Under the pieces are notes generated by a model. It was not told the DNA's origin. It worked only from the letters and a program-made list of their open reading frames with translations, and ran no database searches. A program made the translations under genes and the position numbers. DNA of 64,000 nucleotides from an uncultured Gammaproteobacteria bacterium (GTDB lineage Bacteria > Patescibacteriota > Microgenomatia > Levybacterales > GWA1-39-11). The stretch spans positions 52,531 through 116,530 of the forward strand of contig CAZYWG010000003.1 in NCBI GenBank assembly GCA_964651815.1, in the 5' to 3' direction. Shown here piece after piece: positions 26,421 through 63,933 of the stretch (position 1 is its first letter; each line of letters begins with the position of its first letter).

Positions 26421-26431
26421 TTAATTACAAC

Positions 26432-26956: not shown

Positions 26957-26980
26957 ATAATTGGAGTTGATAAAGAGTCA

Positions 26981-27269: not shown

Positions 27270-27833
27270 TTGGTTATGGAATTTATGGGATTTGCACAAA
27301 AGAAAAAGTATTTATCATTTCTTAGTTCTCATTTCTTAGTTGCCAAAGGATTCACCCTTATTGAACTTCTTGTAGTCATTGCAATATTAGCAGTATTGGC
27401 AGTAATAGTTTTGACAGTAATAAATCCGGGTAAAAGAATTGCATCAGGTAAAAATGCAAGAGTTAGGGCAGATCTCGCGTCAATTGGCCGTGCGGCTACA
27501 CTCTTTTACACCGATACTGCTTCGCCTCAAAACCCCACTTGTACTACCCCAAGTTCATATCCAGAAGCATTTGGAGTTACTGCTGGAGGATGCGGTACAA
27601 AGGTTGCATTTCAGGCAACTGTAAATGACCCTGATGGATCTGCATATACTATAAATGTTCCTACTGGGTGTTCTGCTAGTGGAGCAACAGCCTGCACAGG
27701 ATTTGCAATTGCAGGTCCGGCATACACTGACAACGTAATAAACGCAGGTTCACTTAAAGCATGGTGTTGGCAAGCAAAGACCGGAACAGTAACTCAGGTA
27801 ACAGATAAAACAACCACAAACTGCGCCCCATAA
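27270..27833 (+). CDS. type IV pilin (paralog B of pilin A)
   Basis: KG|FTLIELLVVIAILAVLAV prepilin motif. N-terminal about 60 aa and C-terminal about 50 aa are near-identical to pilin A (...TGFAIAGPAYTDNVINAGSLKAWCWQAKTGT[I/V]TQVTDKTTTNCAP) with a divergent middle. Confidence 0.8.
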   Translation: MVMEFMGFAQKKKYLSFLSSHFLVAKGFTLIELLVVIAILAVLAVIVLTVINPGKRIASGKNARVRADLASIGRAATLFYTDTASPQNPTCTTPSSYPEAFGVTAGGCGTKVAFQATVNDPDGSAYTINVPTGCSASGATACTGFAIAGPAYTDNVINAGSLKAWCWQAKTGTVTQVTDKTTTNCAP

Positions 27834-27920
27834 ATATCAAACGTTTTCTTGACAACATATTAAGTTCTTGTTTAAACTTATTAAGATCTTGCTTAAACTA
27901 AAAGAAGGTACGTACAATTT

Positions 27921-28496
27921 ATGAAATCGCCTAAAAAACTCTCATCTACTATTTCTCATTTCTCACCTCAAAAAAGATTTGTCCTGAGCTTGCCTGCGGG
28001 ATTCACCCTTATTGAACTTCTTGTAGTCATTGCAATCTTAGCAGTATTGGCAGGAATGGTTTTATTAATAATAAATCCTGGCAAAAGAATTGCTTCATCA
28101 AAAGATGCAAATGTTAAATCTGACATCACAACCCTAGCTGTTGCTTTGCAAGGTTATTACACGGCTCAAGCTTCCACGCAATATACCACCACTTTAGATG
28201 GTTTGGTAACGTCAGGTGAATTAAAATCGGTGCCGAAACAGCAATCAGGAAATATTACTTGTCCTGCTGCTGCTGCTGGTTCTACGCTGAATGTTTCTGG
28301 GACGGCGGGTACGACTGGTTATTATTATTGCTATTATACGGTTACCGTGTCGGGCGCTGTGACTTCTGTAGCTGTCATGGGTAGTCTTTTCAACGTTGCT
28401 TCAAACACATGGCATTGTTGGGATTCAAATACCGGTGCATATAAATCTTCAACCACCGCTGCCCCAACAGTTGCCTCAAGCCAGCTAAGCTGTTAA
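27921..28496 (+). CDS. type IV pilin-like protein (S/T-rich)
   Basis: 27-aa leader then AG|FTLIELLVVIAILAVLAGMV; Ser/Thr/Gly-rich C-terminal domain with a Cys pair. Confidence 0.75.
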   Translation: MKSPKKLSSTISHFSPQKRFVLSLPAGFTLIELLVVIAILAVLAGMVLLIINPGKRIASSKDANVKSDITTLAVALQGYYTAQASTQYTTTLDGLVTSGELKSVPKQQSGNITCPAAAAGSTLNVSGTAGTTGYYYCYYTVTVSGAVTSVAVMGSLFNVASNTWHCWDSNTGAYKSSTTAAPTVASSQLSC

Positions 28497-28554
28497 ATCA
28501 TAACCTTGTTATACCGCGTATAAACAGGATAGGCGGATATATCAGCCAAACCAA

Positions 28555-30633: not shown

Positions 30634-30721
30634 ATCATAAGGGGCGTTTTTTACTACTTGCTTTTATATATTGTTTTTGGCTGGGGTTTACATTTACAAA
30701 ACATTATCTTAAACTTTTAAA

Positions 30722-31516
30722 GTGCAAATATATCTAGGTTTTATTTTCTTTATAATTGGCACCGCAGTCGGGAGTTTTTTAGGGGTTGTTATAGACCGCC
30801 TACCTAGGAAAAAATCAATATGGGTTGGACGGTCTGTTTGTGACTCTTGCCACAAAAAGCTTACGCCAATCGAACTTGTACCCGTCGTTTCATATATAGT
30901 CCAGGGTGGTAAGTGCAGAAAGTGCCATGCTAAACTTCCGCTTAAGCTTCTCATTTGCGAGGTTTTAACAGGCCTGGCTTTTGTTTTAGTGTATCTTGTT
31001 TTTCCCCTTTCAGCCTTCCATTTTCAACCCACTCTTTTTACGTTCTTCACTATTCTTTATCTACTTCTCGTGATGTGTCTTAATATTGTTATCTTTTATA
31101 TAGATCTGGATTTTGGGATTATTCCAGACGAATTAATAGGAGTTTTTGTTATTACGGCCCTGCTTTACAACTTTATTTTTTTCAGAGTTGGTTTTATTGT
31201 TCACATTTTCTCGGGCTTAGGAGCTTTTTTACTATTCTTATTCCTATATCTTATAACGCGAGGCCGTGGAATGGGTTTTGGGGACGTAAAATATGCTCTT
31301 GCAATTGGTCTGTTTTTGGGATTTCCAGCCATAATAGTAAGTCTTTACTTTGCTTTCTTGACAGGCGCGGCAATTTCACTAATACTTATAGTATATGGGA
31401 ATAAACATCTTAAAAGCTCCATTCCGTTTGGTCCGTTCTTGGCTGCTGGGACTATCTTTGCCTGTTTTTGGGGAGAAAGCGCAATTAAATTTATTTTCAA
31501 AGTTTTCAATTGGTAA
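30722..31516 (+). CDS. pilD: prepilin peptidase PilD (A24 family)
   Basis: 264 aa; N-terminal Zn-binding CDSCHKKL...CRKCHAKL tetracysteine motif, polytopic, conserved GFGDVKYALAIG region around the catalytic Asp. Confidence 0.85.
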   Translation: MQIYLGFIFFIIGTAVGSFLGVVIDRLPRKKSIWVGRSVCDSCHKKLTPIELVPVVSYIVQGGKCRKCHAKLPLKLLICEVLTGLAFVLVYLVFPLSAFHFQPTLFTFFTILYLLLVMCLNIVIFYIDLDFGIIPDELIGVFVITALLYNFIFFRVGFIVHIFSGLGAFLLFLFLYLITRGRGMGFGDVKYALAIGLFLGFPAIIVSLYFAFLTGAAISLILIVYGNKHLKSSIPFGPFLAAGTIFACFWGESAIKFIFKVFNW

Positions 31517-32033
31517 AAATAACTTTTTTGCCCCTCGCCTCTTATCTTCCCAGGGTTTCACCCTCATTGAACTTCTTGTAGTCATAGCAATTCTCGGAAT
31601 TCTCTCTTTCGTTTTAACAACTACAATCAATCCACTTGATAAAATTAACGCTGCAAATGACGCAAGAGCCATTTCCACAATAACTCAACTTGGCAAGGCA
31701 ATGGATTCATGCGAAACATTTCATGATGATGCAAAACCATCTCCTGCCGGGAATTCGTTCTTTCCTGACTCTATATGTGACTTAAACACTGTTGAGGAAG
31801 TTAAATTTACTACAATTGCCGCAATAAATAATTATACATTTTACTATTTTGTAACGCCCGCAACCTGCAAAAACAATAAGTCAGTCAAATGTACGGGCTA
31901 CCTATTTGGTATTGGTACGCTAGCGTCAAAAAAATTCATAGCTAAGCCCTACTTTGTTTATACGAACGGAAAAGGTTGTTACATTGGTAATATTCCATCT
32001 TTGTCAAGTATTGGAGCCACATCTTGCCCATAG
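31395..32033 (+). CDS. type IV pilin-like protein (start uncertain; 5' end overlaps pilD)
   Basis: Contains QG|FTLIELLVVIAILGILS. The only ATG in frame (31395) lies 120 bp inside pilD and gives a 51-aa leader; the true start is probably a non-ATG codon nearer 31520-31545. Confidence 0.6.
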   Translation: MGINILKAPFRLVRSWLLGLSLPVFGEKAQLNLFSKFSIGKNNFFAPRLLSSQGFTLIELLVVIAILGILSFVLTTTINPLDKINAANDARAISTITQLGKAMDSCETFHDDAKPSPAGNSFFPDSICDLNTVEEVKFTTIAAINNYTFYYFVTPATCKNNKSVKCTGYLFGIGTLASKKFIAKPYFVYTNGKGCYIGNIPSLSSIGATSCP

Positions 32034-32089
32034 AAAAAGTCTTTATCAACAACAGAATCCATTTTATTGGTTTTTAAAATCACATTTTC

Positions 32090-32629
32090 TTGACAGCACC
32101 CCATAATTATTTCATACTAAGTGTAATGCATAAAAAAGGATTTACATTAATCGAATTGGTTGTTGTAATTACAATACTCAGTATTCTTGCAGTTGTTCTT
32201 GTTACGCTTCTCAATCCAGTTACCCAATTTCAAAAGACTAACGATACACAGAGGAAAAGTGATTTGTATCAAGTCCAGAAGGCTTTGGAAACATATTATG
32301 CCGACCATGGTAGTTATCCAATAAGCACGGGTGCCTACACTATAAGTGACAGTAATGGAGCGCACGCCTGGGGTACTAACTGGCCTTCTTATATGGATGT
32401 ATTGCCGCAGGATCCCAAAACAGCGTCTGGTAAAACATACATTTATTATTCTCTCGATGGGCAGAGCTATAAACTTTATACAAATCTTGAGCGCGGCGGC
32501 AATGACCCTCAGGCATGTAATGTCAGTGGTACGGATTGTCCCCACGTCCCGGGAAATCCAGGGTCAAACTTGTGTGGTGGTGGCAGCTCATGTAATTATG
32601 GGCTTTCAAGTCCAAACGTATCGCCGTAA
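32090..32629 (+). CDS. GspG/PulG-like pseudopilin
   Basis: KKG|FTLIELVVVITILSILAVVLVTLLNPVTQFQKTNDTQRKSDLYQVQKALETYYADHGSYP matches the T2SS-G/minor pilin N-domain consensus. Confidence 0.75.
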   Translation: MTAPHNYFILSVMHKKGFTLIELVVVITILSILAVVLVTLLNPVTQFQKTNDTQRKSDLYQVQKALETYYADHGSYPISTGAYTISDSNGAHAWGTNWPSYMDVLPQDPKTASGKTYIYYSLDGQSYKLYTNLERGGNDPQACNVSGTDCPHVPGNPGSNLCGGGSSCNYGLSSPNVSP

Positions 32630-32668
32630 GAGATTGATTAAATATTAGATATTATATATTATAAAAAT

Positions 32669-33157
32669 ATGCCCAAAGCTATCCTAAAAAAGTCCACGGT
32701 CCGTGGTCCACAGTCTACTGCTTCCGGCTTTACGCTTATCGAATTACTAGTTGTTATTAGTATAATTTCTATTCTAGCGTCTCTGCTTTTGGCAAATTTT
32801 GTTGGAATAAGGCAGCGAGCGCGCGACGGACAAAGAAAATCAGACCTTCGCCAAATCCAAGGCGCACTCGAGTTATACCGCGCTGACAATGGTGCCTATC
32901 CTACTCCCGCAAGCGGAATTACACTAGTTACTTGTAATTCAGCTTTTAGTAACGGTACTACGGTGTATATGTCCAAAGTTCCGTGTGATCCTTTATCATC
33001 AACGGGTTACAACTCCGCCAATTACGGATATTCATCAGCTGGCACTACCTATAATTTGTGTGCTTGTTTGGAAAACGCAAACGATCCTGATATTAATACT
33101 ACAAACGGCACTCTTGGCTGCACCAGCACAAAATTTATCTGTTACACCAACCCATAA
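32669..33157 (+). CDS. GspG/PulG-like pseudopilin
   Basis: SG|FTLIELLVVISIISILASLLLANFVGIRQRARDGQRKSDLRQIQGALELYRADNGAYP. Confidence 0.75.
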   Translation: MPKAILKKSTVRGPQSTASGFTLIELLVVISIISILASLLLANFVGIRQRARDGQRKSDLRQIQGALELYRADNGAYPTPASGITLVTCNSAFSNGTTVYMSKVPCDPLSSTGYNSANYGYSSAGTTYNLCACLENANDPDINTTNGTLGCTSTKFICYTNP

Positions 33158-33168
33158 AACTCTAAGAA

Positions 33169-33738
33169 ATGAAAAATGAAAGAAAGATTAATTCCCAGGT
33201 ATTATCAGCCTCAACAGAAAGCAACAAAAAGGGTTTTACCCTAATCGAGCTTTTAGTCACTTTTTCTATACTTTCAGTTTTAGCTTCAATTGGGTTTCTA
33301 TCTTTTGTAACTTATAGCAGAAAACAAATCATTCAACAGTCTGCCTCAGATTTAAAACAAGCAATTGACATTGCAAGGAATAATTCACTCTCAGTGGTAA
33401 AACCAGCGGGCTGCCCTGCAAACAGCGAGCTGTCTTCATATATAGTCAGCATTTGCGTAGGGGGTAATCCTACATGTAATGTTGGCGGAACTATTTATAC
33501 AGGCAACAATTATTATGAAACACGTGCTAATTGTCAACCAACGCAAGTCGTATCACTTCAAAAAAAGCTTCCACAAAATGCTTCATTTGGAGGCAGCAGT
33601 CCATGTCAAAATATTACGTTTGCAAGTGTCCGTCCGCAGACAACCGGGGTTCCATGTGCTGTTAATATAACGCTTAACGGTCAAACTTTAACAGTTTCAG
33701 TAGATTCACAAGGATACGTATCATTTCCTACAAACTAG
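33169..33738 (+). CDS. minor pilin-like protein
   Basis: KKG|FTLIELLVTFSILSVLASIGFL prepilin motif, 23-aa leader. Confidence 0.65.
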   Translation: MKNERKINSQVLSASTESNKKGFTLIELLVTFSILSVLASIGFLSFVTYSRKQIIQQSASDLKQAIDIARNNSLSVVKPAGCPANSELSSYIVSICVGGNPTCNVGGTIYTGNNYYETRANCQPTQVVSLQKKLPQNASFGGSSPCQNITFASVRPQTTGVPCAVNITLNGQTLTVSVDSQGYVSFPTN

Positions 33739-33751
33739 TATTAAAAATTTT

Positions 33752-34249
33752 TTGTTTTTGGATATGTTTATGAAAAAGAATTGGTCATTTATAGTTGGTT
33801 CTGAAGGGCAAAGCATAATAGAAGCGCTTGTTGCGCTTTCTTCCATTTTAATTTCACTCGCAGCAATTTCTGTTGCAATAATAACAAGTGTCAACAACAC
33901 ACAGTTCATAAAAGACCAATCTATCGCTTCAAAATACGCACAACAAGGCATGGAATACATAAAATATATTAGGAATAATGACCCCGCGACTTTCTTTTCT
34001 TACAATGGCATAAAATGTATGAACCAGGACGATTCCTTTTTAAATACATCATGTTCCAGTGCAAACATAGCTGGAGCATATAAGAGAGAGGCTGAATTTA
34101 GTCAAAATGATTCTCAATGTGTCGCAGCAACCAAGGTAACCGTCACAGTTTACTGGACAAGTACTAAGTGTCAAAGTGGATCTTTTTGTCATTCCTCATC
34201 ACTAATATCCTGTTTTTCAACAATACCCGTTTCTCTTAAATCCTTATGA
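33752..34249 (+). CDS. minor pilin-like protein (PilV-like)
   Basis: GQS|IIEALVALSSILISLAAI: degenerate class III signal with Glu+5 retained; Cys-rich C-terminus. Confidence 0.5.
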   Translation: MFLDMFMKKNWSFIVGSEGQSIIEALVALSSILISLAAISVAIITSVNNTQFIKDQSIASKYAQQGMEYIKYIRNNDPATFFSYNGIKCMNQDDSFLNTSCSSANIAGAYKREAEFSQNDSQCVAATKVTVTVYWTSTKCQSGSFCHSSSLISCFSTIPVSLKSL

Positions 34250-34803
34250 CAAAACACAAAATAAATCAGAAAATTTTTGGATATACGGTTATAGAACTTC
34301 TGGCAGTTGTTTCAATTTTGGTTATAATAGCCGGTGTAGTATCAGGTATTTTGTATTCAACTCTACGTGGAAGCGGCAAGGTGAAAGTTACTGGCGAAAT
34401 AATTCAAAATGGCCAATATGCTATATCTGTTGTTAGGTCTATTATTGACGACTCACGTAATGTTACGCTTATTGATGGCGTTGCGCCTGATTGTACGCAG
34501 CCTATTCCTACTCCTGGTGCATCTTCAATCACATTTAAACGATTAGATAATACTACGACTACAATTTCGTGTGTAGGACCACCTTCCTATGCTATTGCTT
34601 CAAACAGTGCGTCGCTTGTTAACACCCAAAGTGTTAAGATACAAAACTGCATATTTTCGTGTGCTCAGCTAGTAAGCGATCCTTACTCCGTGCCAATAAT
34701 TAACGTTACATTTACAGTTTCAGACCGTGGTACGGGATTATTTGAAAGTCGTGCTTCCTCAGTATTTACAACCTCCTCTTCTCTTAGGAGTTATTCCCCG
34801 TAA
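34246..34803 (+). CDS. minor pilin-like protein (PilW-like)
   Basis: FG|YTVIELLAVVSILVIIAGVV; start overlaps the upstream stop (ATGA). Confidence 0.5.
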   Translation: MTKHKINQKIFGYTVIELLAVVSILVIIAGVVSGILYSTLRGSGKVKVTGEIIQNGQYAISVVRSIIDDSRNVTLIDGVAPDCTQPIPTPGASSITFKRLDNTTTTISCVGPPSYAIASNSASLVNTQSVKIQNCIFSCAQLVSDPYSVPIINVTFTVSDRGTGLFESRASSVFTTSSSLRSYSP

Positions 34804-34874: not shown

Positions 34875-35699
34875 ATGGTAAAAAACCCAAATTCAGGGCA
34901 AATGCTTCTTGTTGTGGTTTTGACAATGATTGTTGCGCTCACTGTGGGTTTATCAGTCGCCTCAAGAACGGTTACCAACCTCAAACTTTCACGCCAAAAT
35001 GATGAGTCAGAACGCGCTTTTCAAGCAGCAGAGGCTGGGGTTCAGCAAGTTTTACAATCGGGAAGCGCACTTAACAACCCAAATTTTCAAAATAACGCTA
35101 CATATAATATCGGATCCGTTTCTCATTTAAACGGCGCGAGTATTGGGCTTAATGGTGGAGAGATTGTTGACCAGGATTCTGGGCTTGATGTCTGGCTTTC
35201 AAATTATCCCGATTTTAGTAGCACTATGGGAAACGGTAGTGCTGCTAGCATTACGTTGTATTGGGGTACAGATAATCAGACTACATGCAATACAGGTGGT
35301 TTATCAAACGTTAAATCCGCTCTTGAAATTGCCATACTTTCAGGAAACAAGCTGAATCCCACATTTACTAAAAATTTATATGAGGCAAACACTTGTGGAA
35401 GAATTGCCGGCGCTCTTGCTCCAACCGGTGGGAACGTTACTCCAAGCGGCACAAGCGTTCACTACCAAAATTACGTGACTTTTACAGTTACAAACGGTTT
35501 GATTATGAAAGTAATTCCCATTTATAATTCTTCAAAGATTTTTGCGATATCAAATACAGGGGGCGTAACTTTTCCTCCACAAGGGACCCTGGTGCAGGCA
35601 ACTGGGACTGCCGGAGATACAGTCCGCAAAATAACATATTTTGCTTCTTACCCTCAGATACCTGTTGAAATGTTTCCATATGCACTTATTACACAATGA
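34875..35699 (+). CDS. PilX-like minor pilin (PilX_N domain)
   Basis: MVKNPNSGQMLLVVVLTMIVALTVGLSVASRTVTNLKLSRQNDESERAFQAAEAGV matches the PilX N-terminal pattern (..ALVVALL..LG..S.....AGN....AF.AAEAG). The ORF track starts at 34839; the internal ATG is preferred. Confidence 0.55.
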   Translation: MVKNPNSGQMLLVVVLTMIVALTVGLSVASRTVTNLKLSRQNDESERAFQAAEAGVQQVLQSGSALNNPNFQNNATYNIGSVSHLNGASIGLNGGEIVDQDSGLDVWLSNYPDFSSTMGNGSAASITLYWGTDNQTTCNTGGLSNVKSALEIAILSGNKLNPTFTKNLYEANTCGRIAGALAPTGGNVTPSGTSVHYQNYVTFTVTNGLIMKVIPIYNSSKIFAISNTGGVTFPPQGTLVQATGTAGDTVRKITYFASYPQIPVEMFPYALITQ

Positions 35700-36727
35700 A
35701 AACAAAAACAATTGGCCTTGATATAGGAAGCACCTCTATCAGGGTTGCACACTTAAGGCATGAAGGAAATTCCTTTACCCTCGACTCTATTGCATCTATG
35801 CCGCAAAATACAAACGGATTGATATCCGATTCATTACTTGACCAGCAAGGGCTTGCAGATTCGATAAAAAAACTTATTTCTTCAGCAAATATTCACACCA
35901 AGGAAGTTGTGCTTTCAATTCCTGATAGCATGGTTTATACCAAAATAATACAAATGCCACAGCTTTCAGACCAAGAATTATCTGCAGCTTTAAAATTTGA
36001 AATGGAACAATACATACCTCTCCCAGTTGATCAGGTAAAGACAGATTGGGAAGTGCTTAGTAGGAATGAAACAAGTGGGAAAAAGACAATGAATGTCATG
36101 ATTGTTGCGGCCCCTCTCTCACTTCTTTCAAAATATGAAAAAATTATGGACATGGCGGGCTTGCTACCTGATGCAATTGAGACTGAGATTGTATCTGCCC
36201 ACCGTTCATTATTACCGCTAATTAACAATCCCGAGGCAAATATGATTGTGCATATTGGAGCCATAACTACAAGCATTGCAATAGTTAAAGAAGGTAAAAT
36301 AAAAATGATTTTTTCGCTAGGGCTTGGTGGGGCAGCTATGACTCGCTCAATATCAGTTGATCTTGGTATAGATATATCGCAAGCTGAAAATTACAAAAAA
36401 GCTTATGGACTTTCACAATCGGCATTTGAAGGGAAGATCGCAAAAGTCCTTGACCCTGTTTTGACATCTATAGTAGCAGACGTTAAAAAAGCAATGCTAT
36501 CTTACCATGAAAAAAATAACAACGAAAATATTAAACAATTGGTTTTGTCGGGCGGCTCCTCTCTCCTCCCAGGACTTGATGTTTATCTAACAAACGCATT
36601 ATCCACTCAAGTAGTTTTGGGTCGTGCTTGGTCTGCTTATAACATTTCAAATATACCTGATGAGTTACAGTCCCAAGCACCCGCATACAATGTAGCGATT
36701 GGTTTGGCTCTACGTAATTTAGTATGA
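35696..36727 (+). CDS. pilM: type IV pilus assembly protein PilM (actin-like ATPase fold)
   Basis: 343 aa; N-terminal IGLDIGSTSIRVAHL phosphate-1 motif and ...VLSGGSSLLPGL adenosine motif; start overlaps the pilX stop. Confidence 0.8.
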   Translation: MKTKTIGLDIGSTSIRVAHLRHEGNSFTLDSIASMPQNTNGLISDSLLDQQGLADSIKKLISSANIHTKEVVLSIPDSMVYTKIIQMPQLSDQELSAALKFEMEQYIPLPVDQVKTDWEVLSRNETSGKKTMNVMIVAAPLSLLSKYEKIMDMAGLLPDAIETEIVSAHRSLLPLINNPEANMIVHIGAITTSIAIVKEGKIKMIFSLGLGGAAMTRSISVDLGIDISQAENYKKAYGLSQSAFEGKIAKVLDPVLTSIVADVKKAMLSYHEKNNNENIKQLVLSGGSSLLPGLDVYLTNALSTQVVLGRAWSAYNISNIPDELQSQAPAYNVAIGLALRNLV

Positions 36728-57007: not shown

Positions 57008-57571
57008 TTACAAGCCTAACTCGCCCGCAATTTTCTGCATTGAGGAGAGGATTATTTCCACAAATTTTGAAAGCGGAATATTCAGTTTTTCTTCGCATAG
57101 TTTTATTACTTCACGGTCCGCGCCTTTCGCAAACGATTTTTCGCCGAAGCGTTTTAGCACAAAATCAGGCGTTATATCGGATAGTTTTTTTGACGGTGAA
57201 ATTAACGTTGCAGCAACAATAAGACCTGTCAATTGGTCGCACGTAGTAATTGCCCAATCCATAGGAGTTACGGGTGTGACTTTTGTGTTCTGAAAGTTGT
57301 GAGAATTAATGGCGTGTCCTATATCTTCTGGGAGATTTTCTTTTTCAGTTATTACCATTCCATGTCTAGTCGGATCGTCTCCGTACATTTCATAATCCGC
57401 GTCGTGTAAAAGTCCGGTTATTCCCCAGGTTTCAACCGTTTGTTCGTTTACATTCGGATCGAGATATTTACAAATACCCATCATTGCTGCTTCACACGCA
57501 AGACAATGCTTAATGAGATTTTTATTCTTAAGATACTTGTTTAAAATTTTATCTGCGTCTTCTCGTATCAT
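57008..57571 (-). CDS. HD-domain phosphohydrolase
   Basis: 187 aa; H...HD (GLLHDADYE) metal-binding pattern. Confidence 0.7.
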   Translation of the reverse strand: MIREDADKILNKYLKNKNLIKHCLACEAAMMGICKYLDPNVNEQTVETWGITGLLHDADYEMYGDDPTRHGMVITEKENLPEDIGHAINSHNFQNTKVTPVTPMDWAITTCDQLTGLIVAATLISPSKKLSDITPDFVLKRFGEKSFAKGADREVIKLCEEKLNIPLSKFVEIILSSMQKIAGELGL

Positions 57572-57767
57572 GGTCTAATGGTTCAATGCTTTGATTTTTC
57601 ACTTCCCTATCAGACACGCTTCCACCTATTGGAGCGTCTCTTAATGATTCCGGAATAATTGTTGATACCCTAATATTTCTTACGGTACCACCTATTTTCT
57701 TTTTTAATGAGTAGGAATCTTTAGCTACTTCAGTTAATGGTTCGAATTTTTGTCTTCTTGATGACAT
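57549..57767 (-). CDS. hypothetical small protein
   Basis: 72 aa ORF, basic; weak support. Confidence 0.2.
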   Translation of the reverse strand: MSSRRQKFEPLTEVAKDSYSLKKKIGGTVRNIRVSTIIPESLRDAPIGGSVSDREVKNQSIEPLDHDTRRRR

Positions 57768-57770
57768 ATG

Positions 57771-58400
57771 TTATTTTGAGCCTGAGAGCGCAACTTTTAT
57801 TCCTAGTCCAATTAAAACAACACCGATAAATTTCTCAGCATAATGCTGAATTTTATGAATTCTTGCTTGAATCAAATGATGGGAAAAAACGTAAGCAATT
57901 AATGCAAACCAAAGAGTTGTTACAACAGACATTTCTCCACCCATAATTAATTTTACAAAAAGCGGGGTTTTAGGGCTTATTACAAGAGTAAAAAGGCTTA
58001 AAAAGAATAAAGTTGCCTTTGGATTAAGAGCATTTGTCAGAAAGCCAATTTTGACTGCATGCCATTTTGGAATATCTATTTTTTCCACTATTCTGCTCTC
58101 ATCACGCTTGGACTGCTTTGAAGTTAACGATTTAAAGCCGATATAAATAAGATACGCGGCGCCTAAATATTTTATGAAGTTAAAAAGCAGAATTGATTTT
58201 GAAATAATGTACCCTATTCCTATTAGTGAATAAGTAACATGGACAAGTATCCCAAGGCCAAGTCCCAATGCAGAATAAATTCCGGTTTTTCTTGAATAAA
58301 TTAAGCTGTTGCGGGTTATCATCATAAAATCCGGCCCAGGGCTTACAACTGCCAAAAAATGGACTAAAGCAACTGTTAAAATGATTGATAGATAAGGCAT
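57771..58400 (-). CDS. LysE/RhtB family amino-acid exporter
   Basis: 209 aa, 6 TM; N-terminal ...VVSPGPDFMMITRNSL resembles the LysE/RhtB signature. Confidence 0.7.
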   Translation of the reverse strand: MPYLSIILTVALVHFLAVVSPGPDFMMITRNSLIYSRKTGIYSALGLGLGILVHVTYSLIGIGYIISKSILLFNFIKYLGAAYLIYIGFKSLTSKQSKRDESRIVEKIDIPKWHAVKIGFLTNALNPKATLFFLSLFTLVISPKTPLFVKLIMGGEMSVVTTLWFALIAYVFSHHLIQARIHKIQHYAEKFIGVVLIGLGIKVALSGSK

Positions 58401-58467
58401 AGTTTAATTATAACATTCCGTCAGATTGTTAATTAATGATATTTCTGATAAAATTTGAACCTAACCG

Positions 58468-58541
58468 GGACCCATAGCTCAGTTGGTTAGAGCGTTACAT
58501 TGACATTGTAAAGGCCAGTGGTTCGAGTCCACTTGGGTCCA
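58468..58541 (+). tRNA. tRNA-Val (anticodon GAC)
   Basis: Hand-folded cloverleaf: acceptor GGACCCA/TGGGTCC (7 bp), U8, D stem GCTC/GAGC with AGTTGGTTA loop, anticodon stem TTACA/TGTAA with loop TTGACAT (GAC), T arm AGTGG-TTCGAGT-CCACT, discriminator A; CCA not encoded. Confidence 0.85.
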
Positions 58542-59621
58542 CTAGACCAATACGATTTGCTCACAAAATTCCGCTGCTTTTACCATGTCTGAAATTTTTA
58601 CAAATTCTCTCTTTGTATGAGCTTCATAATCTCCTATTCCTACGGCAACGGCTTGAATTCCATTTGTGTGAAATATGTTGACGTCTGTCCCTCCTCCCGA
58701 TTCATGAAAGTTAGGCTTTAAATTCAATTTAGCAAAAGCTTTTTTCATTTTGTTTAAAACAGGATGTTGCTCGTCAAGTCTGTAAGGATCAAATTCCCTT
58801 TCGATTTTTAAGTCAATTTGTACTTCGGGATTTATTTTCATGACGGAATCAAATACATCTTCAAAATGCTGCGTGTGTTTTATAAGTTTTTCAATATTTC
58901 TGCTTCTTATTTCTCCTTTAAAATGAATGGTTTCTGGGACTGCGTTGCGGGCGCTTCCGCCCTCAATTAAACCTATATTTGCAGTTGTCTCTTCGTCAAT
59001 TCTCCCAAGTTTCAAACCTGAAATAATTTCGGAACCAATTTGAATAGCGGAGATTCCTTTTTCAGGTTCCGCTCCTGCGTGCGCACCTCTACCTGTTATT
59101 GTAACGTCTACTCTATTATATCCGGGTGCAGCAATGTCAACCGTTGCTACATCATCGTCTCCATCAAAGGTTACGCCTGTTTTGGCCCTTATTTTTCTAT
59201 AATCCAAATTCATAGCGCCTATCAAACCCGTTTCTTCTTGTCTTGTAATTACTACATCTATTGGAGCATGTGTTTTCTTCTTTGTCGCAAGGGATGTTAG
59301 CGCTTCGAGAATTTCAGCAATTCCAGCCTTTGGGTCTCCACCGAGAATTGTTGTTCCGTCAGAAGTTATTATGTCTCCGTCGATTTTTGGCATTATTCCT
59401 CTTCCGGGTTCAACTGTATCCATATGTGCAGAAAGCATGAAAGGGTCACCCACTCCATCAAAAAATCCGTATACATTTCCATAAAGGTCAGTATCAGTTT
59501 TTGCGCCAAGCTTTTTGAGACGAAATATCAATTCTTTAGCAATTTCATCCTCATATCCCGAAGGGCTGTCTATTTTAACGAGATCTACGAAAGTTTTTAT
59601 GAGTCGATTTTTATTAATCAT
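58542..59621 (-). CDS. M20-family metallopeptidase (peptidase T-like)
   Basis: 359 aa; SAHMDTV metal ligand region and TGRGAHAGAEPEKGISAI (GxxAHxxxPxxGxxAI) typical of M20 enzymes. Confidence 0.7.
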   Translation of the reverse strand: MINKNRLIKTFVDLVKIDSPSGYEDEIAKELIFRLKKLGAKTDTDLYGNVYGFFDGVGDPFMLSAHMDTVEPGRGIMPKIDGDIITSDGTTILGGDPKAGIAEILEALTSLATKKKTHAPIDVVITRQEETGLIGAMNLDYRKIRAKTGVTFDGDDDVATVDIAAPGYNRVDVTITGRGAHAGAEPEKGISAIQIGSEIISGLKLGRIDEETTANIGLIEGGSARNAVPETIHFKGEIRSRNIEKLIKHTQHFEDVFDSVMKINPEVQIDLKIEREFDPYRLDEQHPVLNKMKKAFAKLNLKPNFHESGGGTDVNIFHTNGIQAVAVGIGDYEAHTKREFVKISDMVKAAEFCEQIVLV

Positions 59622-59638
59622 ACAAAATTATACTAAAA

Positions 59639-60589
59639 TTATTTTTTCTTTCTTAACAATGTAAGAAAGTGACGTTTGTGTTCTGCTTCCCTTACTATTT
59701 GAGCAATATCGATCGATTTTCCCACATCTCCTCTACCGGCTGCAAAAAGTGCCGGTCCAATTTCCGCTCTTCTTTCTCGCGAAAGCTCTTTGAGCACAGG
59801 ATAGTTTTGCACTGCATCAAAAACTTCCTGTACCTTGCCTTTGTCACCGTAAAAGTTTGTAAGTATGTTTATTACGCGAGGATCTGCGTGCATGCCAATC
59901 AAAAATGCAGCGGATTGTTCGCTAAAATCACTATCTAAAAGAAATCTCCTTATTGATTCATAAGATCTAAAATCAAGAGGTATTTCATATTTTGGAAAAC
60001 TATCAAGTTCCTCTCTGTGTTGTTCGCGAAGATCTTTGTTTACAAATTCTTGCGCCCAGCCTTCATCGTGAGTTGTAACAGCAATTGGGACAGACAAGTT
60101 AACAGCCGCGTCAATTATTTCACTTGTTCTAATTCGTTGTGTAGCAAGAGGGATTGTCCTATGTCTGCTCGAACCCATAAATAAATAGTCAAAGCTGTCA
60201 AAAAAAACGGCGACTTTCAAGCGATCAGCTGAACGTAATGCGTCAGTTACTACGCCGTATGGTACTTCTTGGTGATGTCCATCGATAAAAACATAACCCC
60301 ACCCTTCTTTTTGACAAATCTCGGAAAGTCCAAAGAGAATTGTTCCTTTACCACTTTGGGGTTCACCAATAACGTTTACTTTTCCATGTTCAAATAAAAG
60401 TTGTGCTGCTTCAACTGTTTCTTCAGGTCTCCAAACCTTCATTTCATCTCTGAGTTGGTTTGCGGTTACTTCTTTATACATTCTAGCCACAACTGACCTA
60501 TCGGGAAGGGGATTTCCTCTAAAGAATTTTATTCCATTGTAGCTTGCGGTTCTCTCATTTCTAGGAGTTCCGGTTTCATTTATAGTCAT
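59639..60589 (-). CDS. P-loop NTPase of unknown function (RecA/KaiC-like Walker A/B)
   Basis: 316 aa; Walker A GEPQSGKGT, Walker-B-like VAVFFDSFD; no other recognisable domain. Confidence 0.5.
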   Translation of the reverse strand: MTINETGTPRNERTASYNGIKFFRGNPLPDRSVVARMYKEVTANQLRDEMKVWRPEETVEAAQLLFEHGKVNVIGEPQSGKGTILFGLSEICQKEGWGYVFIDGHHQEVPYGVVTDALRSADRLKVAVFFDSFDYLFMGSSRHRTIPLATQRIRTSEIIDAAVNLSVPIAVTTHDEGWAQEFVNKDLREQHREELDSFPKYEIPLDFRSYESIRRFLLDSDFSEQSAAFLIGMHADPRVINILTNFYGDKGKVQEVFDAVQNYPVLKELSRERRAEIGPALFAAGRGDVGKSIDIAQIVREAEHKRHFLTLLRKKK

Positions 60590-60598
60590 AATTATTGC

Positions 60599-61681
60599 CT
60601 ACATGTTTGTGGAAGTTGAAAAACTTGTTCCTTTAAAATCTTTATAGCTCGAATAATCAACATTCCACGCATCTCCCTCAGGAAGAGGGATTTTCCCATA
60701 TCCTCCAGGCACGTCAATTACAAAACGAGCTGTGGCTGCAACTCCCGAAAGTCTGGGCCGCAAACTTTTCCAAATATCAACACTCTCTTCCAGAGGCACA
60801 GTGAAATGTCTTGCCCAATACACAGGGTCATTTTGATACAGATAGTAAGGGACAATTCCCTCTTTTGCAAGCTTTGAAAACAAATCAGCCAGAATGTCAA
60901 CGGAATCATTTACTCCTTTCAAAAGTACAGATTGACTCATAACCACCGCGCCCGATTCCCTCCTGAATCGTTTTAAAACATCCTTTGTATCGTCCGTGAG
61001 TTCCGCAGGATGGTTTATGTGAACCATAAGCCTGGGGTTCTCAAGTTTTGAAACCGCCTCAAAGTGTGCCTCTTTAATTGCCTTAGGATTATGTACTGGC
61101 AAACGTGTTCCTATACGGACAATATCTAATTTTCCATCTTTTTGCATTTCTCCTAAATTGCTTAGCGCGTAGTTTAGGACGTCGGGCCGTACAGTTAATG
61201 GGTCCCCGCCGGATAAAATTACCTCGTTTAATCCAGGCTCTTGTCTTATAAAGGAAAGTGTGGTGTCCATGTCCTCTTTGGTCAAACTAGGATTGTGGGC
61301 AAGAAAACCGCTACCTTGGCCGTCATGTCCTTTTGCAATACCCACTTCTCTACCTCTTGTGCAGAATCTGCAATATGCTGCACAGCCACGAGTAATAGTC
61401 CATAAAGCTCTTCCATTATCTTTTCCACTTGCTGTATATTTATAGACTAATCCTGGAGCTACTTCGTGTTCGTCTTCCATCAGAGGGTCGCTCGATTCCA
61501 TATCATATTTGGCACTTTCTAATTCGGGCTGTGCCACAAACTGAATTCCTATTGGTCCTCTAACCCCACCGGTTGATGCAATAAGGCTCTGAAGGTGTAC
61601 AGGAATTACCTCCGGTAGTCCACCGGATGGAAGAGTGACATCTGCCCCTCTTGGTACGAATGGCCGTGTTTCGCTGCTCAT
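60599..61681 (-). CDS. KamA-family radical SAM aminomutase-like protein (lysine 2,3-aminomutase / EpmB family)
   Basis: 360 aa; radical-SAM cluster motif CAAYCRFCTRG (cf. KamA CxxYCRxCTR), followed by the LSGGDPL SAM-binding motif and a PLP-region-like sequence. Confidence 0.8.
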   Translation of the reverse strand: MSSETRPFVPRGADVTLPSGGLPEVIPVHLQSLIASTGGVRGPIGIQFVAQPELESAKYDMESSDPLMEDEHEVAPGLVYKYTASGKDNGRALWTITRGCAAYCRFCTRGREVGIAKGHDGQGSGFLAHNPSLTKEDMDTTLSFIRQEPGLNEVILSGGDPLTVRPDVLNYALSNLGEMQKDGKLDIVRIGTRLPVHNPKAIKEAHFEAVSKLENPRLMVHINHPAELTDDTKDVLKRFRRESGAVVMSQSVLLKGVNDSVDILADLFSKLAKEGIVPYYLYQNDPVYWARHFTVPLEESVDIWKSLRPRLSGVAATARFVIDVPGGYGKIPLPEGDAWNVDYSSYKDFKGTSFSTSTNM

Positions 61682-63294
61682 AAAAATGCTACAGGCATAC
61701 TGGGAGCGTTGTAGCCGCCGTGGGTTTTTTTACCGGGACGTATAGTAACCATTACGTCCGACATTTCTATCCCGTTTTCGGTGATGTAGTAGAATGGTGT
61801 AAATCGTCCTCTAATAACTTCATTTCCCGCTTTGTATATCTTTGTTACATCTTCATCAGGAAAGTAAATTGGATGCTCCAGCGATTTTCCTTCAGCATAC
61901 TTTTGCATTACGCTAACACCGCCTGAGTCAGCTAGTAATGCATCCATTTGTTGCTTGAACCCGTTTTTACTCTTGTCCTGAGCAAAAGAAACGCTTCTTG
62001 CGCCCCAGGCGTCAGGAGCTGCTCCGGACTTTTTGATTACAAGTTCTCTATCTTTTCCTGAAAGATTTATTAAATCCTCCCATGTATTTGCGATAGGTTG
62101 AGGGGCAAGTTCTGGTGTTATTACCACCGTAGGTGGAATTAACGTTTTTAAAATGTCAATTTCTTCTTCAGTAAAATACTCTTTCCAGTGTCTATCGAAA
62201 TCAGGGTGGTGTAGAAATGCCAGAATTGCTTTTTCTTCAAGGTAAGCGTGTTGCAATGTGGGTACAACATCTATTCCGGACCCGTTTCTCATTTCATCTA
62301 GAATTGGTTCTACTCCGGCATCATATCTGGCAACAACAGCTCCCTCTTTGTTTGTCATCTCAAACCCAGGATCTATTTCGTAAGTTTCGAAAAATCTATC
62401 TATACCTACCACGGGAATTCCGGCCGGTTTTCCAGCAACAAAAATATCTCCTCCTGCTTTGCTTATTGCGTTTGATGGACGAAAAACCATCTTGCCGTTC
62501 TCCTTTAAAAGTTCACCTTCATCATTTGTCCACACGGGTACACCTTGCATTCTGCTTCTTTCAGCAAGTAGTTTAAGTTCTGGCTTGAAATCCCTGCTAT
62601 CTTCATAAGAAATAATAACTACAGCGTTATTTTCGTTGGCTCCACGTGCTTTCCACATTTTGGCATAACCTTTTTCCGAACCCTCCGGTTTAACAATCTG
62701 AGGGTCTTCAACCACATCTTTATACATAGTGCTTAAAGATGAACTTATTCCGCGACCACCAATCATTAGTTCAAGTTCGGTTAGTCTGAATCCTTCTGTG
62801 GTAAGACAAAGATCAGGCCTAAACATGCTAGAAGAATATGGCATGTCACCGGACGCATCTATGAAGTCAAGTGTAGCCTGGTTTTTCCCCCTCCTCACCA
62901 CTTCTTTAACAACATCACTTTTGCCATATAAATCTGAAGCAGCATGAACGAATCTATCTAAAAGCTTGCCCATTACACGCATTCCTTCTTGTGTAGGCTT
63001 TGGAAGGTAAAAGTAATCAGGGCTCACTCCCATCCATGGGAGTTGTCCCTCTCCGTTGCTGTAAAATAAGTGATCTTTTTTAATTTGCTCAGCAATTGCG
63101 CGCCCGTTTGTATTGTGGACTTCATTTTCAACATTTCTTTTTGGAGTTTCGATAGGTGACAAAACTCCATTTCTTATTGCACCTATCTCGTCAGGCGTTA
63201 AAGGCACAATAGGATTGCGAGAAAATTCGCCGCCACGTTGCGCTTGAAATTTTGCTTGAGCTTCTCCGTTATTAATAAATTCTGGTTTTGTCAT
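61678..63294 (-). CDS. large uncharacterised protein (possible ligase/ATP-grasp-like; unassigned)
   Basis: 538 aa soluble ORF translationally coupled (4-bp overlap) to the KamA-like gene; no motif could be assigned by eye. Confidence 0.4.
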   Translation of the reverse strand: MTKPEFINNGEAQAKFQAQRGGEFSRNPIVPLTPDEIGAIRNGVLSPIETPKRNVENEVHNTNGRAIAEQIKKDHLFYSNGEGQLPWMGVSPDYFYLPKPTQEGMRVMGKLLDRFVHAASDLYGKSDVVKEVVRRGKNQATLDFIDASGDMPYSSSMFRPDLCLTTEGFRLTELELMIGGRGISSSLSTMYKDVVEDPQIVKPEGSEKGYAKMWKARGANENNAVVIISYEDSRDFKPELKLLAERSRMQGVPVWTNDEGELLKENGKMVFRPSNAISKAGGDIFVAGKPAGIPVVGIDRFFETYEIDPGFEMTNKEGAVVARYDAGVEPILDEMRNGSGIDVVPTLQHAYLEEKAILAFLHHPDFDRHWKEYFTEEEIDILKTLIPPTVVITPELAPQPIANTWEDLINLSGKDRELVIKKSGAAPDAWGARSVSFAQDKSKNGFKQQMDALLADSGGVSVMQKYAEGKSLEHPIYFPDEDVTKIYKAGNEVIRGRFTPFYYITENGIEMSDVMVTIRPGKKTHGGYNAPSMPVAFL

Positions 63295-63302
63295 AAGTTA
63301 AA

Positions 63303-63347
63303 CACAAAAAAACCTCCCCATTTCTGTGGGAGGTTTCGTTTTTTGTC
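63303..63347. terminator. bidirectional rho-independent terminator
   Basis: AAACCTCCC-catttctgt-GGGAGGTTT hairpin flanked by A-run on the 5' side and TCGTTTTTTG on the 3' side. Sits downstream of the minus-strand 128-aa gene and upstream of the 538-aa gene. Confidence 0.55.
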
Positions 63348-63485
63348 TTAATTTGTTTTTACGATTCCTCCATAAATTACTCAGTCCAATAAAGGACGAA
63401 GCAAATAATGTGAAGGAACTTCTGATTCATAAAAGATATTTTAAACGAGACTGTGAAAATTTGTCAAGAGGGGAAAACGTATTAC

Positions 63486-63578
63486 CCAGTTTGAGTAGCG
63501 GTTGTTCGCTTGGTCGCAGCAAGTGCGACATTTCGCTCACAACAGGTCATCCAGTTTGAGTAGCTGTTGTTCGCTCAC
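63486..63578. repeat. 25-bp direct repeat CCAGTTTGAGTAGC[G/T]GTTGTTCGCT (x2) flanking a GTCGCAgcaaGTGCGAC palindrome
   Basis: Copies at 63486-63510 and 63551-63575; TTCGCTCAC also repeated (63532-40, 63570-78); the second copy encodes the last 9 aa and stop of the 128-aa ORF. Confidence 0.5.
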
Positions 63579-63933
63579 CAGATAGTCCGAAAGATGTCCC
63601 GTGTGTTTTGTAAGAGCTCCAGTATTTGCTTTGTTGTTTTTTGCTTTGGAATAATGAGCCGTACGCTGCGCCATCTTCTAGCTTGCGGGTTGCATCGCGA
63701 ATAACTGACAATACAAACTCAAAGAAATTAAGGTGGTATTTTCCGGGTTTGATAGGCGCTTTGTCGGCAGTTGCATCTTTTACAGTCATTTCAACAACCT
63801 TAGAAGTTGCAATTAGTCTTTTAATTTCCATTCGGATTTCATCAACGCTGCGCTTAATTTGCATTTCCATGTGGGTCTCGCCGGTCCCATCAGCATTCTC
63901 AACTGTTGACCTAAAGTAATTCATGTGTTCCAT
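63547..63933 (-). CDS. hypothetical protein
   Basis: 128 aa ORF, no recognisable motif; followed by the terminator at 63303-63347. Confidence 0.3.
   Translation of the reverse strand: MEHMNYFRSTVENADGTGETHMEMQIKRSVDEIRMEIKRLIATSKVVEMTVKDATADKAPIKPGKYHLNFFEFVLSVIRDATRKLEDGAAYGSLFQSKKQQSKYWSSYKTHGTSFGLSGERTTATQTG

Follow-up and report, generated by a model that had tools for sequence, protein, structure and literature searches.

Beta-lysine is known as a modifier of EF-P, as a precursor of archaeal osmolytes and as a building block of antibiotics, and a different type of enzyme attaches it each time. In pyrrolysine biosynthesis, the radical SAM enzyme PylB rearranges lysine to a nonproteinogenic isomer and the ATP-grasp ligase PylC makes an amide bond. 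Ribosomal protein S6 is modified by RimK, also an ATP-grasp enzyme, and the LysW/LysX/LysK system pairs ATP-grasp and M20 enzymes. Cp1B, the beta-alanine-using homoglutathione synthetase and the peptide-spermidine ligases YgiC and YjfC all condense a carboxylate with an amine (PMC12568646).

Here, we analyzed a locus in a window of 64,000 nt (the whole stretch of DNA under study) from a small-genome (CPR/Patescibacteria-type), Microgenomates-like bacterium, where the first-pass annotation had marked a cluster of three minus-strand genes. The coordinates of the three genes, the 4-bp overlap (ATGA) between the 538-aa and 360-aa genes, the CAAYCRFCTR motif and the Walker A and B motifs were all found as described (Table 1). 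While the three genes are real, the unit comprises four, with the gene of a PepT-like M20 peptidase following on the same strand 17 nt beyond the NTPase gene, which itself lies 9 nt from the 360-aa gene. The M20 peptidase scored 297 bits with TIGR01883 (cut-off, 274) and also matched Pfam Peptidase_M20 and M20_dimer, and its gene is syntenic in a relative. With intergenic distances of −4, 9 and 17 nt, a single strong promoter-like site and synteny in the relatives L003, L095 and L096, the locus is most likely a native four-gene operon, with the ligase, aminomutase, NTPase and M20 peptidase genes in that order. The genes from 57008 to 63933 are HD, LysE, M20, NTPase, KamA, ligase and DUF5660.

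Table 1. Positions of the operon genes, leader elements and neighboring features in the window
Feature	Coordinates	Strand	Basis or remark
ATP-grasp acid-amine ligase, 538 aa	61678..63294	-	Eukaryotic GSH-synthetase / GSP-synthetase / YgiC / Cp1B fold; predicted activity
KamA-family radical SAM/PLP aminomutase-like enzyme, 360 aa	60599..61681	-	NCBIfam, 2A5H alignment; predicted activity
P-loop NTPase, 316 aa	59639..60589	-	Walker A/B; family seen here only in CPR-type bacteria
PepT-like M20 metallopeptidase, 359 aa, fourth operon gene	58542..59621	-	TIGR01883, Pfam
tRNA-Val(GAC), convergent to operon	58468..58542	+	ARAGORN and Rfam
LysE-type basic-amino-acid exporter	57771..58400	-	Pfam LysE 8e-34
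Promoter-like site TTGACA-18-TAAAAT	63438..63467	-	11/12 consensus matches, best in region
Leader element: putative 17-codon ORF MNQKFLHIICFVLYWTE*, also stable hairpin	63377..63430	-	Read from sequence; kept in L003
Terminator-like hairpin CCTCCCACAGAAATGGGGAGG + T7	63306..63333	-	End 12 nt before ATP-grasp start codon

The 538-aa protein, reported at first pass to carry no assignable domain, matched nothing in Pfam or NCBIfam, GSP_synth (PF03738), CP_ATPgrasp and GSH_synth_ATP of Pfam included. It shows the three-domain ATP-grasp fold of the eukaryotic GSH-synthetase/GSP-synthetase/YgiC class, which agrees with the earlier suggestion of a putative ligase of the ATP-grasp/GSP-synthetase type. 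Weak matches to GSP_synth and CP_ATPgrasp_2 were found for 4/67 and 3/67 of its relatives, respectively, and a profile of these 67 family members retrieved no PDB sequence. The invariant residues are R159-P-D161, E173, E353-E354-K355, R416, K421, S423-G424, Q464, R497 and H525, which, compared by their order along the chain, may correspond to the catalytic residues R316, D318, E330, N332, K498, Q582 and R598 of GspS. At 50% identity, the family falls into at least 1190 clusters; it has neither a name nor a profile model, and was not covered by any literature that we found. A set of 5.8 billion clustered proteins contains only two CPR sequences of it, although distant relatives are plentiful in other phyla, and these two alone carry an N-terminal extension of some 90 aa. 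Judged by sequence, these proteins are a separate, unmodelled ATP-grasp family.

The 360-aa protein had been placed in the KamA/EpmB family of radical SAM enzymes, and both its motif and its profile matches bear this out. Within CAAYCRFCTR, CAAYCRFC provides the equivalents of C125, C129 and C132 (CxxxCxxC, [4Fe-4S]/SAM) of Clostridium subterminale lysine 2,3-aminomutase (2A5H; 1e-42), and the protein matched Pfam Radical_SAM and every KamA-family NCBIfam model at 149 to 202 bits. Each of these scores fell below the respective NCBIfam cut-off: 173.4 versus 199.2 for TIGR00238, 195.6 versus 525 for AblA, 202 versus 396 for AblA_like_2, 159 versus 650 for the Glu model, 149 versus 600 for the Arg model and 173.6 versus 369.3 for the EpmB equivalog TIGR03821. 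On these scores, the protein is a divergent clade of the KamA superfamily. The equivalents of R134, D293, D330 and K337 are kept not only in the protein but also in 7 CPR homologues and 13 ligase-linked partners; in 2A5H, K337 is the PLP lysine and R134, D293 and D330 are substrate residues, of which D293 and D330 probably indicate specificity for lysine. The protein ends at residue 360, with Ser in place of the Zn ligand Cys268 and without the C-terminal cysteines of the Zn site or the C-terminal oligomerisation domain of the clostridial enzyme. We predict that it is a 2,3-aminomutase for lysine or some other basic amino acid.

The pairing of the two genes was surveyed in 80 loci that carry a gene for a relative of the ligase. 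In 13/80 of them, the next gene downstream, in the same orientation, belongs to the KamA family, namely in 7/7 assessable loci in Nitrospinota, 4/4 of the Nitrospirota type, 1/1 in Armatimonadota and 1/3 in Chloroflexota, and these partners come from different KamA sub-clades. Recurrence of the same enzyme pair in at least four other phyla strengthened the earlier proposal that an aminomutase forming a beta-amino acid feeds the ligase. For the majority of the family (Verrucomicrobiota, Latescibacterota), no KamA gene lies next to the ligase gene. A glutaredoxin gene lies between the ligase and KamA genes in Nitrospirota, and in Opitutae the ligase gene is flanked by a DsbD-like gene and adjoins a class I release-factor gene. 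Closer to the locus, the gene order in a relative genome is DUF5660 - ATP-grasp - X - NTPase - M20 - tRNA-Val - HD, at 64 to 81% protein identity, and in L095/L096 the M20 peptidase (73% identical) is syntenic and also lies beside tRNA-Val(GAC). In the closest relative, a ligase gene (product 64% identical) is followed by a DAP-epimerase-like gene in place of KamA, so the ligase does not strictly need a KamA neighbor.

The NTPase carries Walker A GEPQSGKGT (residues 75 to 83) and Walker B VFFDSFD (residues 128 to 134), which show little or no variation across 40 homologues. Its best Pfam matches, nSTAND3, ATP_bind_1 and AAA_16, were weak (E values of 0.05 to 0.1), nSTAND3 was matched by 4/40 homologues (best, 1.5e-6), and no relative was found in PDB or PADLOC. 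The NTPase is not specific to the trio in which the first-pass annotation placed it: in many genomes its gene comes after one for an amino-acid or peptide enzyme of changing type, and the slot directly upstream of it is occupied by DUF1177, S-Me-THD/DUF917, M20, DAP-epimerase-like or KamA genes. On the far side of the operon, the LysE gene lies between tRNA-Val and the HD gene, a position from which it is missing in L095/L096; this exporter is possibly an accessory gene that co-varies with KamA and may be linked to it in function.

Upstream of the ligase gene, both hexamers of the promoter-like site are kept in L003, and the site is likely the start of the operon transcript. The counterpart of the leader ORF in L003 is MNQKFLHITGFVLYWTE*, with 6/8 nucleotide differences at codon position 3, and the leader RNA folds gave z-scores of −4.3 and −4.8; the element may be either peptide-coding or a structured RNA. 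The 3′ arm and T-run of the terminator-like hairpin are identical in L003, and this hairpin was present at every simulated ribosome position, which implies that the downstream genes need read-through. Transcription would thus run from the promoter, about 145 nt upstream, via the conserved leader and then through the terminator-like hairpin.

We hold with moderate confidence that the operon is native and that its ligase/aminomutase core converts lysine via beta-lysine to an ATP-dependent amide with a partner compound. The aminomutase would most likely act on free L-lysine, or on a different basic amino acid, giving the 3-amino (beta) isomer, and the ligase would use ATP to form an acyl-phosphate before joining a carboxylate to an amine. 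One of these two ligase partners would be beta-lysine, in a role comparable to that of beta-alanine in homoglutathione synthetase or of spermidine in YgiC and glutathionylspermidine synthetase. We expect the resulting amide, with beta-lysine as a component, to be most likely a small molecule, and the M20 hydrolase could plausibly trim or recycle such amides. The fold, motifs, conserved residues, gene order and cross-phylum pairing are observations, and the substrates, the product and the parts played by NTPase and peptidase are predictions. Against this pathway stand the scores of the KamA-like protein, which lie under all NCBIfam cut-offs, the generic KamA subfamily included (173 versus 199), the five other sampled neighborhoods of its clade, which have neither ligase nor NTPase, the epimerase-like gene in the closest relative and the many family members away from any KamA gene.

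It is unlikely, in our judgment, that the two genes are mere neighbors in a compact genome, with a housekeeping-type CPR KamA gene sitting in a variable slot and having no pathway link to the ligase. The slot upstream of the NTPase does hold different enzymes in different genomes, the relative retains the ligase with an epimerase instead of KamA, and CPR KamA-like genes are otherwise solitary, the clade being common in CPR genomes and five other sampled neighborhoods containing neither ligase nor NTPase. However, the genes here are translationally coupled through the 4-bp overlap, four other phyla show the same order of ligase and then KamA, with divergent KamAs, which is much more than chance would give for genes present in one or two copies, and every occupant of the slot is an enzyme of amino-acid or peptide metabolism, so that the cassette seems themed rather than random. 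Acquisition of the cluster as a horizontally transferred genomic island integrated beside tRNA-Val appears very improbable. The first-pass annotation had set about 50% GC here against 25 to 40% elsewhere and had taken the tRNA-Val about 1 kb away for an integration hot-spot. The tRNA is indeed 1.1 kb from the NTPase gene, but the GC contrast was overstated: the cluster, at 41.9% versus 38.0% for the window, has the highest GC of same-sized windows (SD, 1.8%; top 1%, +2 SD), and its 200-nt stretches span 35.5 to 51%. Of the sliding-GC and codon-usage check proposed earlier, the GC half came out raised for the KamA-like gene, the sole unusual one (44.4%, z = +2.0; GC3 z = +1.1), while codon usage was ordinary; the NTPase (39.6%) and 538-aa (41.6%) genes lie within the gene-to-gene spread, with typical GC3 and synonymous codon usage. 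Moreover, the 21-nt 3′ end of the tRNA occurs once in the window with 3 mismatches allowed, no convincing repeat flanks the cluster, no integrase or recombinase is encoded among the genes from 57008 to 63933, and the single recombinase among ten window ORFs scanned, a tyrosine recombinase at 11078-12031, lies 47 kb off. The whole locus with its tRNA-Val(GAC) is common to L003, L095 and L096, and homologues of the NTPase and of KamA are typical of CPR genomes. Hence, a mobile island at tRNA-Val, with no att repeat in the window, no integrase nearby among the ORFs scanned and the same arrangement in a relative, was rejected, and the tRNA is a conserved landmark rather than an integration scar. 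The rarity of the ligase in CPR bacteria, set against its abundance elsewhere, would fit a transfer of its gene long ago.

Two further explanations are, in our judgment, very improbable. In one, the 17-codon leader ORF (...YWTE) would encode a precursor or carrier peptide, to the C-terminal carboxylate of which the ligase adds an amine (e.g., beta-lysine), with the M20 enzyme releasing or trimming the product. The LysW system is a precedent for pairing ATP-grasp and M20 enzymes, the leader ORF is conserved, most of its changes lying at third codon positions, and the hairpin that follows it must be read through. YgiC and YjfC are likewise cited as putting spermidine on peptides (PMC12568646). 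However, the comparison involves two sequences only, the same substitutions also preserve the RNA hairpin, the ATG coincides with or directly adjoins the predicted start of transcription and has no Shine-Dalgarno sequence, no comparable small ORF precedes the ligase gene in other phyla, and the conserved D293 and D330 argue for free lysine as the KamA substrate. In the other, which we consider equally doubtful, the ligase would be a nonhomologous analogue of EpmA that puts beta-lysine onto EF-P or another translation protein, for which the RimK precedent, the release-factor neighbor in Opitutae and the resemblance of the KamA-like protein to EpmB in length and in the missing C-terminal Zn domain can be cited. 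The efp gene noted at first pass is located at 224-778, and its product reads KMGR32G at the loop tip, where Arg32 probably corresponds to K34 of E. coli EF-P. A scan of the operon and of ten mid-sized window ORFs revealed no EpmA-like paralogue of class II synthetases, and PheS and ThrRS were the only synthetases seen. The earlier statements that an EpmA/PoxA partner is missing and that the locus is not an EpmA/EpmB module for EF-P beta-lysylation thus hold, given the ORFs scanned, the EpmB score and Arg32.

Returning to the small-molecule amide pathway, we propose tentatively that the unnamed ATP-grasp family and KamA form a widespread, undescribed two-enzyme route to a beta-lysine amide metabolite in Nitrospinota, Nitrospirota, Armatimonadota, Chloroflexota and the CPR lineage, and, as part of the same tentative proposal, that the CPR version sets this route in a cassette of variable amino-acid enzyme, NTPase and peptidase in which the aminomutase is exchangeable for an epimerase. 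From the glutaredoxin gene within the pair in Nitrospirota and the DsbD-like gene in Opitutae, the metabolite may be a redox or stress compound resembling glutathione or glutathionylspermidine. If true, beta-lysine would be handled by a ligase of the GSH/GSP-synthetase fold from a large family as yet without a name or model. The gene pair offers a directly testable hypothesis in Nitrospinota and Nitrospirota, major environmental phyla, and in CPR bacteria, of whose metabolism little is understood, and the aminomutase/epimerase exchange in an NTPase-linked cassette may show how reduced CPR genomes diversify amino-acid chemistry.

Compared with described systems, the locus resembles EpmB-EpmA in that a KamA-family enzyme, short because it lacks the C-terminal domain, stands beside an ATP-using ligase, with efp in the same window. 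In contrast to EpmA, however, the ligase is an ATP-grasp enzyme and not a class II aaRS paralogue, the KamA-like protein reaches 174 bits against the EpmB cut-off of 369, and EF-P has Arg rather than Lys at the modified position. From KamA/AblA (2A5H) the KamA-like protein keeps the CxxxCxxC motif, the PLP lysine and the lysine-binding Arg/Asp/Asp, while it scores 196 bits against the AblA cut-off of 525 and has neither the Zn cysteine nor the C-terminal domain. As in the AblA-AblB pathway to N-epsilon-acetyl-beta-lysine, beta-lysine would be made and then derivatised by the product of the adjacent gene, here an ATP-grasp ligase in place of a GNAT acetyltransferase. With the GSP synthetase/YgiC-YjfC/eukaryotic (homo)GSH synthetase/fungal Cp1B class the 538-aa ligase shares about 10 to 14% sequence identity; it has no amidase domain but does have the extra N-terminal stretch of about 90 aa, and the characteristic partner of its family is a KamA-family enzyme. 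In its logic, the pair is like PylB-PylC, with a radical SAM enzyme predicted to rearrange lysine to a nonproteinogenic isomer and an adjacent ATP-grasp ligase predicted to make the amide bond.

Inspection of the minus strand recovered the 538-, 360- and 316-aa reading frames exactly where the first-pass annotation had placed them, together with the 4-bp overlap it described between the first two genes and the radical-SAM motif of the second. The 360-aa gene is separated from the NTPase gene by 9 nt, and the operon proved to have a fourth gene on the same strand, encoding an M20 peptidase, which lies 17 nt past the NTPase gene and whose end abuts tRNA-Val(GAC). The strong GC enrichment claimed for the cluster turned out to be a small one (41.9% versus 38.0% for the window, with an SD of 1.8% among windows of the same length), and its richest 200-nt stretch reached 51% GC. 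Gene by gene, only the KamA-like gene was unusual (44.4% GC, z = +2.0; GC3 z = +1.1), while GC3 and synonymous codon usage were unremarkable for the NTPase and 538-aa genes. The window carries features of Microgenomates-type CPR/Patescibacteria, including the DUF5660 neighbor gene and many type-IV-pilin-like genes, and homologues of its proteins bear the names Roizmanbacteria, Gottesmanbacteria, Woesebacteria and Cerribacteria. At least eight of the pilin-like genes form a run, which is followed by a PilM-like gene; with the T2SSE ATPase gene, these make up a set typical of CPR bacteria.

Coordinates of the operon, its leader and other features (window positions unless a locus is named; L003 and L095 are contigs of a related organism, other L numbers are loci of homologues elsewhere)
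Feature	Position	Strand	Remark
EF-P gene	224-778	+	loop tip KMGR32G
T2SSE ATPase gene	22720-23784		
Type-IV-pilin-like genes	26405-34803	+	N-terminal GFTLIELLVV motif
PilM-like gene	35696-36727		
LysE-type basic-amino-acid exporter gene	57771-58400	minus	between tRNA-Val and HD gene
tRNA-Val(GAC)	58468-58542	+	tRNA
PepT-like M20 peptidase gene	58542-59621	minus	TIGR01883, 297 bits (cut-off 274)
316-aa NTPase gene	59639-60589	minus	ORF; Walker A and Walker B
360-aa KamA-like protein gene	60599-61681	minus	ORF; CAAYCRFCTR, Pfam Radical_SAM
538-aa protein gene	61678-63294	minus	ORF
Terminator-like hairpin, GC-rich, with T7 run	63333-63306	minus	ends 12 nt before ligase start codon
17-codon ORF, MNQKFLHIICFVLYWTE	63430-63377	minus	doubles as stable hairpin
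Promoter-like site, strong	63467-63438	minus	leader start
25-nt direct repeats	63486-63510; 63551-63575		96% identical, 65 nt apart
Leader in relative	L003 5795-6005		
DAP-epimerase-like gene	L095 864-1757; L003 7565-8134		counterpart of window 60599-61681
Glutaredoxin/GST_N gene	L053 7419-7664; L083 7301-7603		Nitrospirota
DsbD-like gene	L076 7366-9384		Opitutae
DsbA/thioredoxin-like gene	L014 8138-8953; L107 7445-8182		CPR
Release factor gene (PCRF/RF-1)	L076 4782-5927		Opitutae
Ligase homologue P0003	L006 2266-3982		beside DarT/Macro pair

No Pfam or NCBIfam model matched the 538-aa protein, and a word-indexed search returned only four relatives, one of them close (64% identity), while a four-sequence profile run against 1.84 billion representatives retrieved at least 1190 proteins at E ≤ 0.001. 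The AlphaFold model from the four-sequence alignment was useless (pLDDT 44), and the one from 67 sequences was confident (pLDDT 88.4, pTM 0.90). Judged by the latter, the initial guess of a putative ligase is right, as enzymes of the predicted fold class join a carboxylate and an amine. Pfam matches among the 67 relatives were to GSP_synth, weakly, in 4 and to CP_ATPgrasp_2 in 3, and the family profile matched nothing among PDB sequences. Fifteen residues are invariant in the family, including R159-P-D161, E173, K421, S423-G424, Q464 and R497, and they appear to agree in order and spacing with the Mg/ATP site of GspS. The ligase family is unnamed and undescribed, though the components of the operon belong to known kinds.

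The 360-aa protein matched Radical_SAM in Pfam as well as each of the NCBIfam models of the KamA family, the latter always with scores below the cut-offs, and aligned at 1e-42 to the lysine 2,3-aminomutase of Clostridium subterminale (2A5H, whose numbering is used here). R134, D293 and D330 are retained, as are the PLP-binding lysine K337 and the three cysteines of the cluster, but the zinc ligand Cys268 and the C-terminal domain of 2A5H are missing. In lysine 2,3-aminomutase, R134 presumably binds the substrate carboxylate, and D293 and D330 presumably bind the epsilon-ammonium group; this Asp pair is replaced in glutamate 2,3-aminomutase. The presence of all three residues makes free lysine, or else another basic amino acid, the most likely substrate. 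The clade of this protein spans hundreds of CPR genomes at 57-67% identity, and five of its neighborhoods that we sampled held no conserved partner, ligase or NTPase. The proteins encoded upstream of these CPR KamA-likes were considered as conserved ligases and rejected, being mutually unrelated and matching no Pfam model.

In a one-genome-per-species scan with the four-sequence ligase alignment, 531 loci contained ligase relatives, and the best 80 of these were retained, mostly from Verrucomicrobiota (Opitutae), with others from Nitrospinota, Nitrospirota, Latescibacterota, Chloroflexota, Armatimonadota and Poribacteria. A KamA-family gene followed the ligase gene immediately and on the same strand at 13 of these best 80 loci, with a spacing of -19 to about +365 nt. 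Such adjacency was seen at 7/7 assessable loci of Nitrospinota, 4/4 of Nitrospirota type, 1/1 of Armatimonadota and 1/3 of Chloroflexota, and at 0/7 of Latescibacterota and 0/about 55 of Verrucomicrobiota. The ligase-linked aminomutases scored 250 to 460 bits with the AblA model versus 196 for the window protein, and they fall in different KamA sub-clades, all with the same lysine-type residues. Our main evidence that ligase and aminomutase act in one pathway is that the pairing recurs across distant phyla and that the two genes overlap by 4 bp in the window; a conserved pairing of this kind was not found in the searched literature. As the best-supported reading, we consider it moderately probable that lysine is converted to beta-lysine by the aminomutase and that the ATP-grasp ligase then couples beta-lysine to a partner through an amide bond, in which case the M20 peptidase may hydrolyze the resulting amides and the NTPase may have an accessory or regulatory role.

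The whole leader, promoter-like site included, is strikingly conserved in the relative, being nearly identical in L003 although the proteins there are only 64-81% identical. Six of the eight differences in the 17-codon ORF lie at third codon positions, and the hairpin over this ORF is preserved despite the substitutions (z-scores -4.3 and -4.8). A classic leader-peptide attenuator, in which GGAGGAA could pair with either the ORF or the terminator arm, was rejected in the form modeled, as the terminator hairpin persisted at every simulated ribosome position, and no riboswitch or leader family of Rfam scored above threshold. The leader is a candidate lineage-specific regulatory or peptide-coding element. 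Just upstream of the operon promoter-like site, the two direct repeats lie on either side of the point where the DUF5660 gene has its 3′ end.

The tRNA-Val had been viewed as an integration hot-spot, and the operon might accordingly be a genomic island at that site. We regard this as very unlikely: the tRNA 3′ end is single-copy in the window, the only recombinase seen among ten scanned ORFs is 47 kb off, and the relative (contigs L003, L095 and L096) has the same order of DUF5660, ligase, a middle gene, NTPase, M20, tRNA-Val(GAC), HD protein and ThrRS, so that the locus is ancestral to both genomes. Identities between the two were 71% for DUF5660, 64% for the ligase, 81% for the NTPase, 73% for M20, 71% for HD and 51% for ThrRS. 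What changed between them is the middle enzyme of the operon, an in-place swap within an otherwise syntenic operon, since the relative has in place of KamA a 297-aa DAP-epimerase-like protein (PF01678, two cysteine motifs). It also lacks the LysE-type exporter between tRNA and HD gene, and the two lysine-related genes therefore co-vary. The ligase gene may have entered this CPR lineage by an old transfer, because CPR ligase sequences number only two and sit on a long branch.

The genes could also be unrelated neighbors within a variable cassette, an explanation that we hold to be improbable given the pairing across phyla. The annotated P-loop NTPase was borne out, Walker A and Walker B being invariant in 40 homologues; 50 homologues were found, every source-named one from a CPR-type bacterium, with weak similarities to STAND/AAA-type proteins and no match of the family profile to PDB sequences; PADLOC gave nothing meaningful. 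In other genomes its gene is always preceded by a variable amino-acid or peptide enzyme (DUF1177, S-Me-THD/DUF917 or M20 peptidase) and followed by peptidase S51, M20, Asp/Glu racemase or MR_MLE genes; the searched literature on DUF1177 yielded nothing relevant. The first gene of these cassettes (L007, L009, L011 and L098-L105) encodes a large protein of 650-1001 aa (or 393 aa); the large proteins, aligned as A4, showed no Pfam, PDB or ligase similarity, and BLASTP and hhalign excluded the 650-1001-aa ones as ligase homologues. A system for beta-lysylating proteins has a smaller chance still. EF-P is encoded in the window, but its loop tip has Arg32 where E. coli KPGK34G has the modified Lys34, and neither the operon nor ten other scanned ORFs contain an EpmA-like gene, which makes EF-P beta-lysylation unlikely and backs the first-pass view that this is not an obvious module of that type. 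Arginine at this position is the residue type rhamnosylated by EarP in other bacteria. Just as improbable as protein beta-lysylation is a pathway built on the leader peptide, whose ORF is conserved in the relative; in other phyla, the DNA ahead of the ligase gene contained no conserved small ORF of this kind.

Other neighbors recur at ligase and KamA loci. In Nitrospirota, the ligase and KamA genes flank a glutaredoxin/GST_N gene; in Opitutae, the gene after the ligase is DsbD-like; and a DsbA/thioredoxin-like gene is found beside or near CPR KamA-likes. These thiol-redox neighbors offer no more than a lead toward a glutathionyl-like conjugate. At L076 and 22 Opitutae loci, and on the P0004 contig, a gene for a class I peptide-chain release factor immediately precedes the ligase-family gene, whose neighbor on the other side is leuS or DsbD; the arrangement may reflect lineage synteny or a functional link. 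The distant homologue P0003 adjoins a DarTG-like toxin-antitoxin pair.

For the proposed coupling of beta-lysine to a partner, the closest known systems include enzymes sharing the modeled fold of the ligase. As predicted, this fold class includes the fungal E-64 ligase Cp1B (9cjn), E. coli YgiC (7uka), glutathionylspermidine synthetase (2io7) and trypanothione synthetase, and likewise the eukaryotic glutathione and homoglutathione synthetases. Enzymes of the class activate a carboxylate to an acyl-phosphate and then condense it with an amine: homoglutathione synthetase takes beta-alanine for this step, YgiC and YjfC take spermidine, and Cp1B takes an amino acid (PMC12568646).
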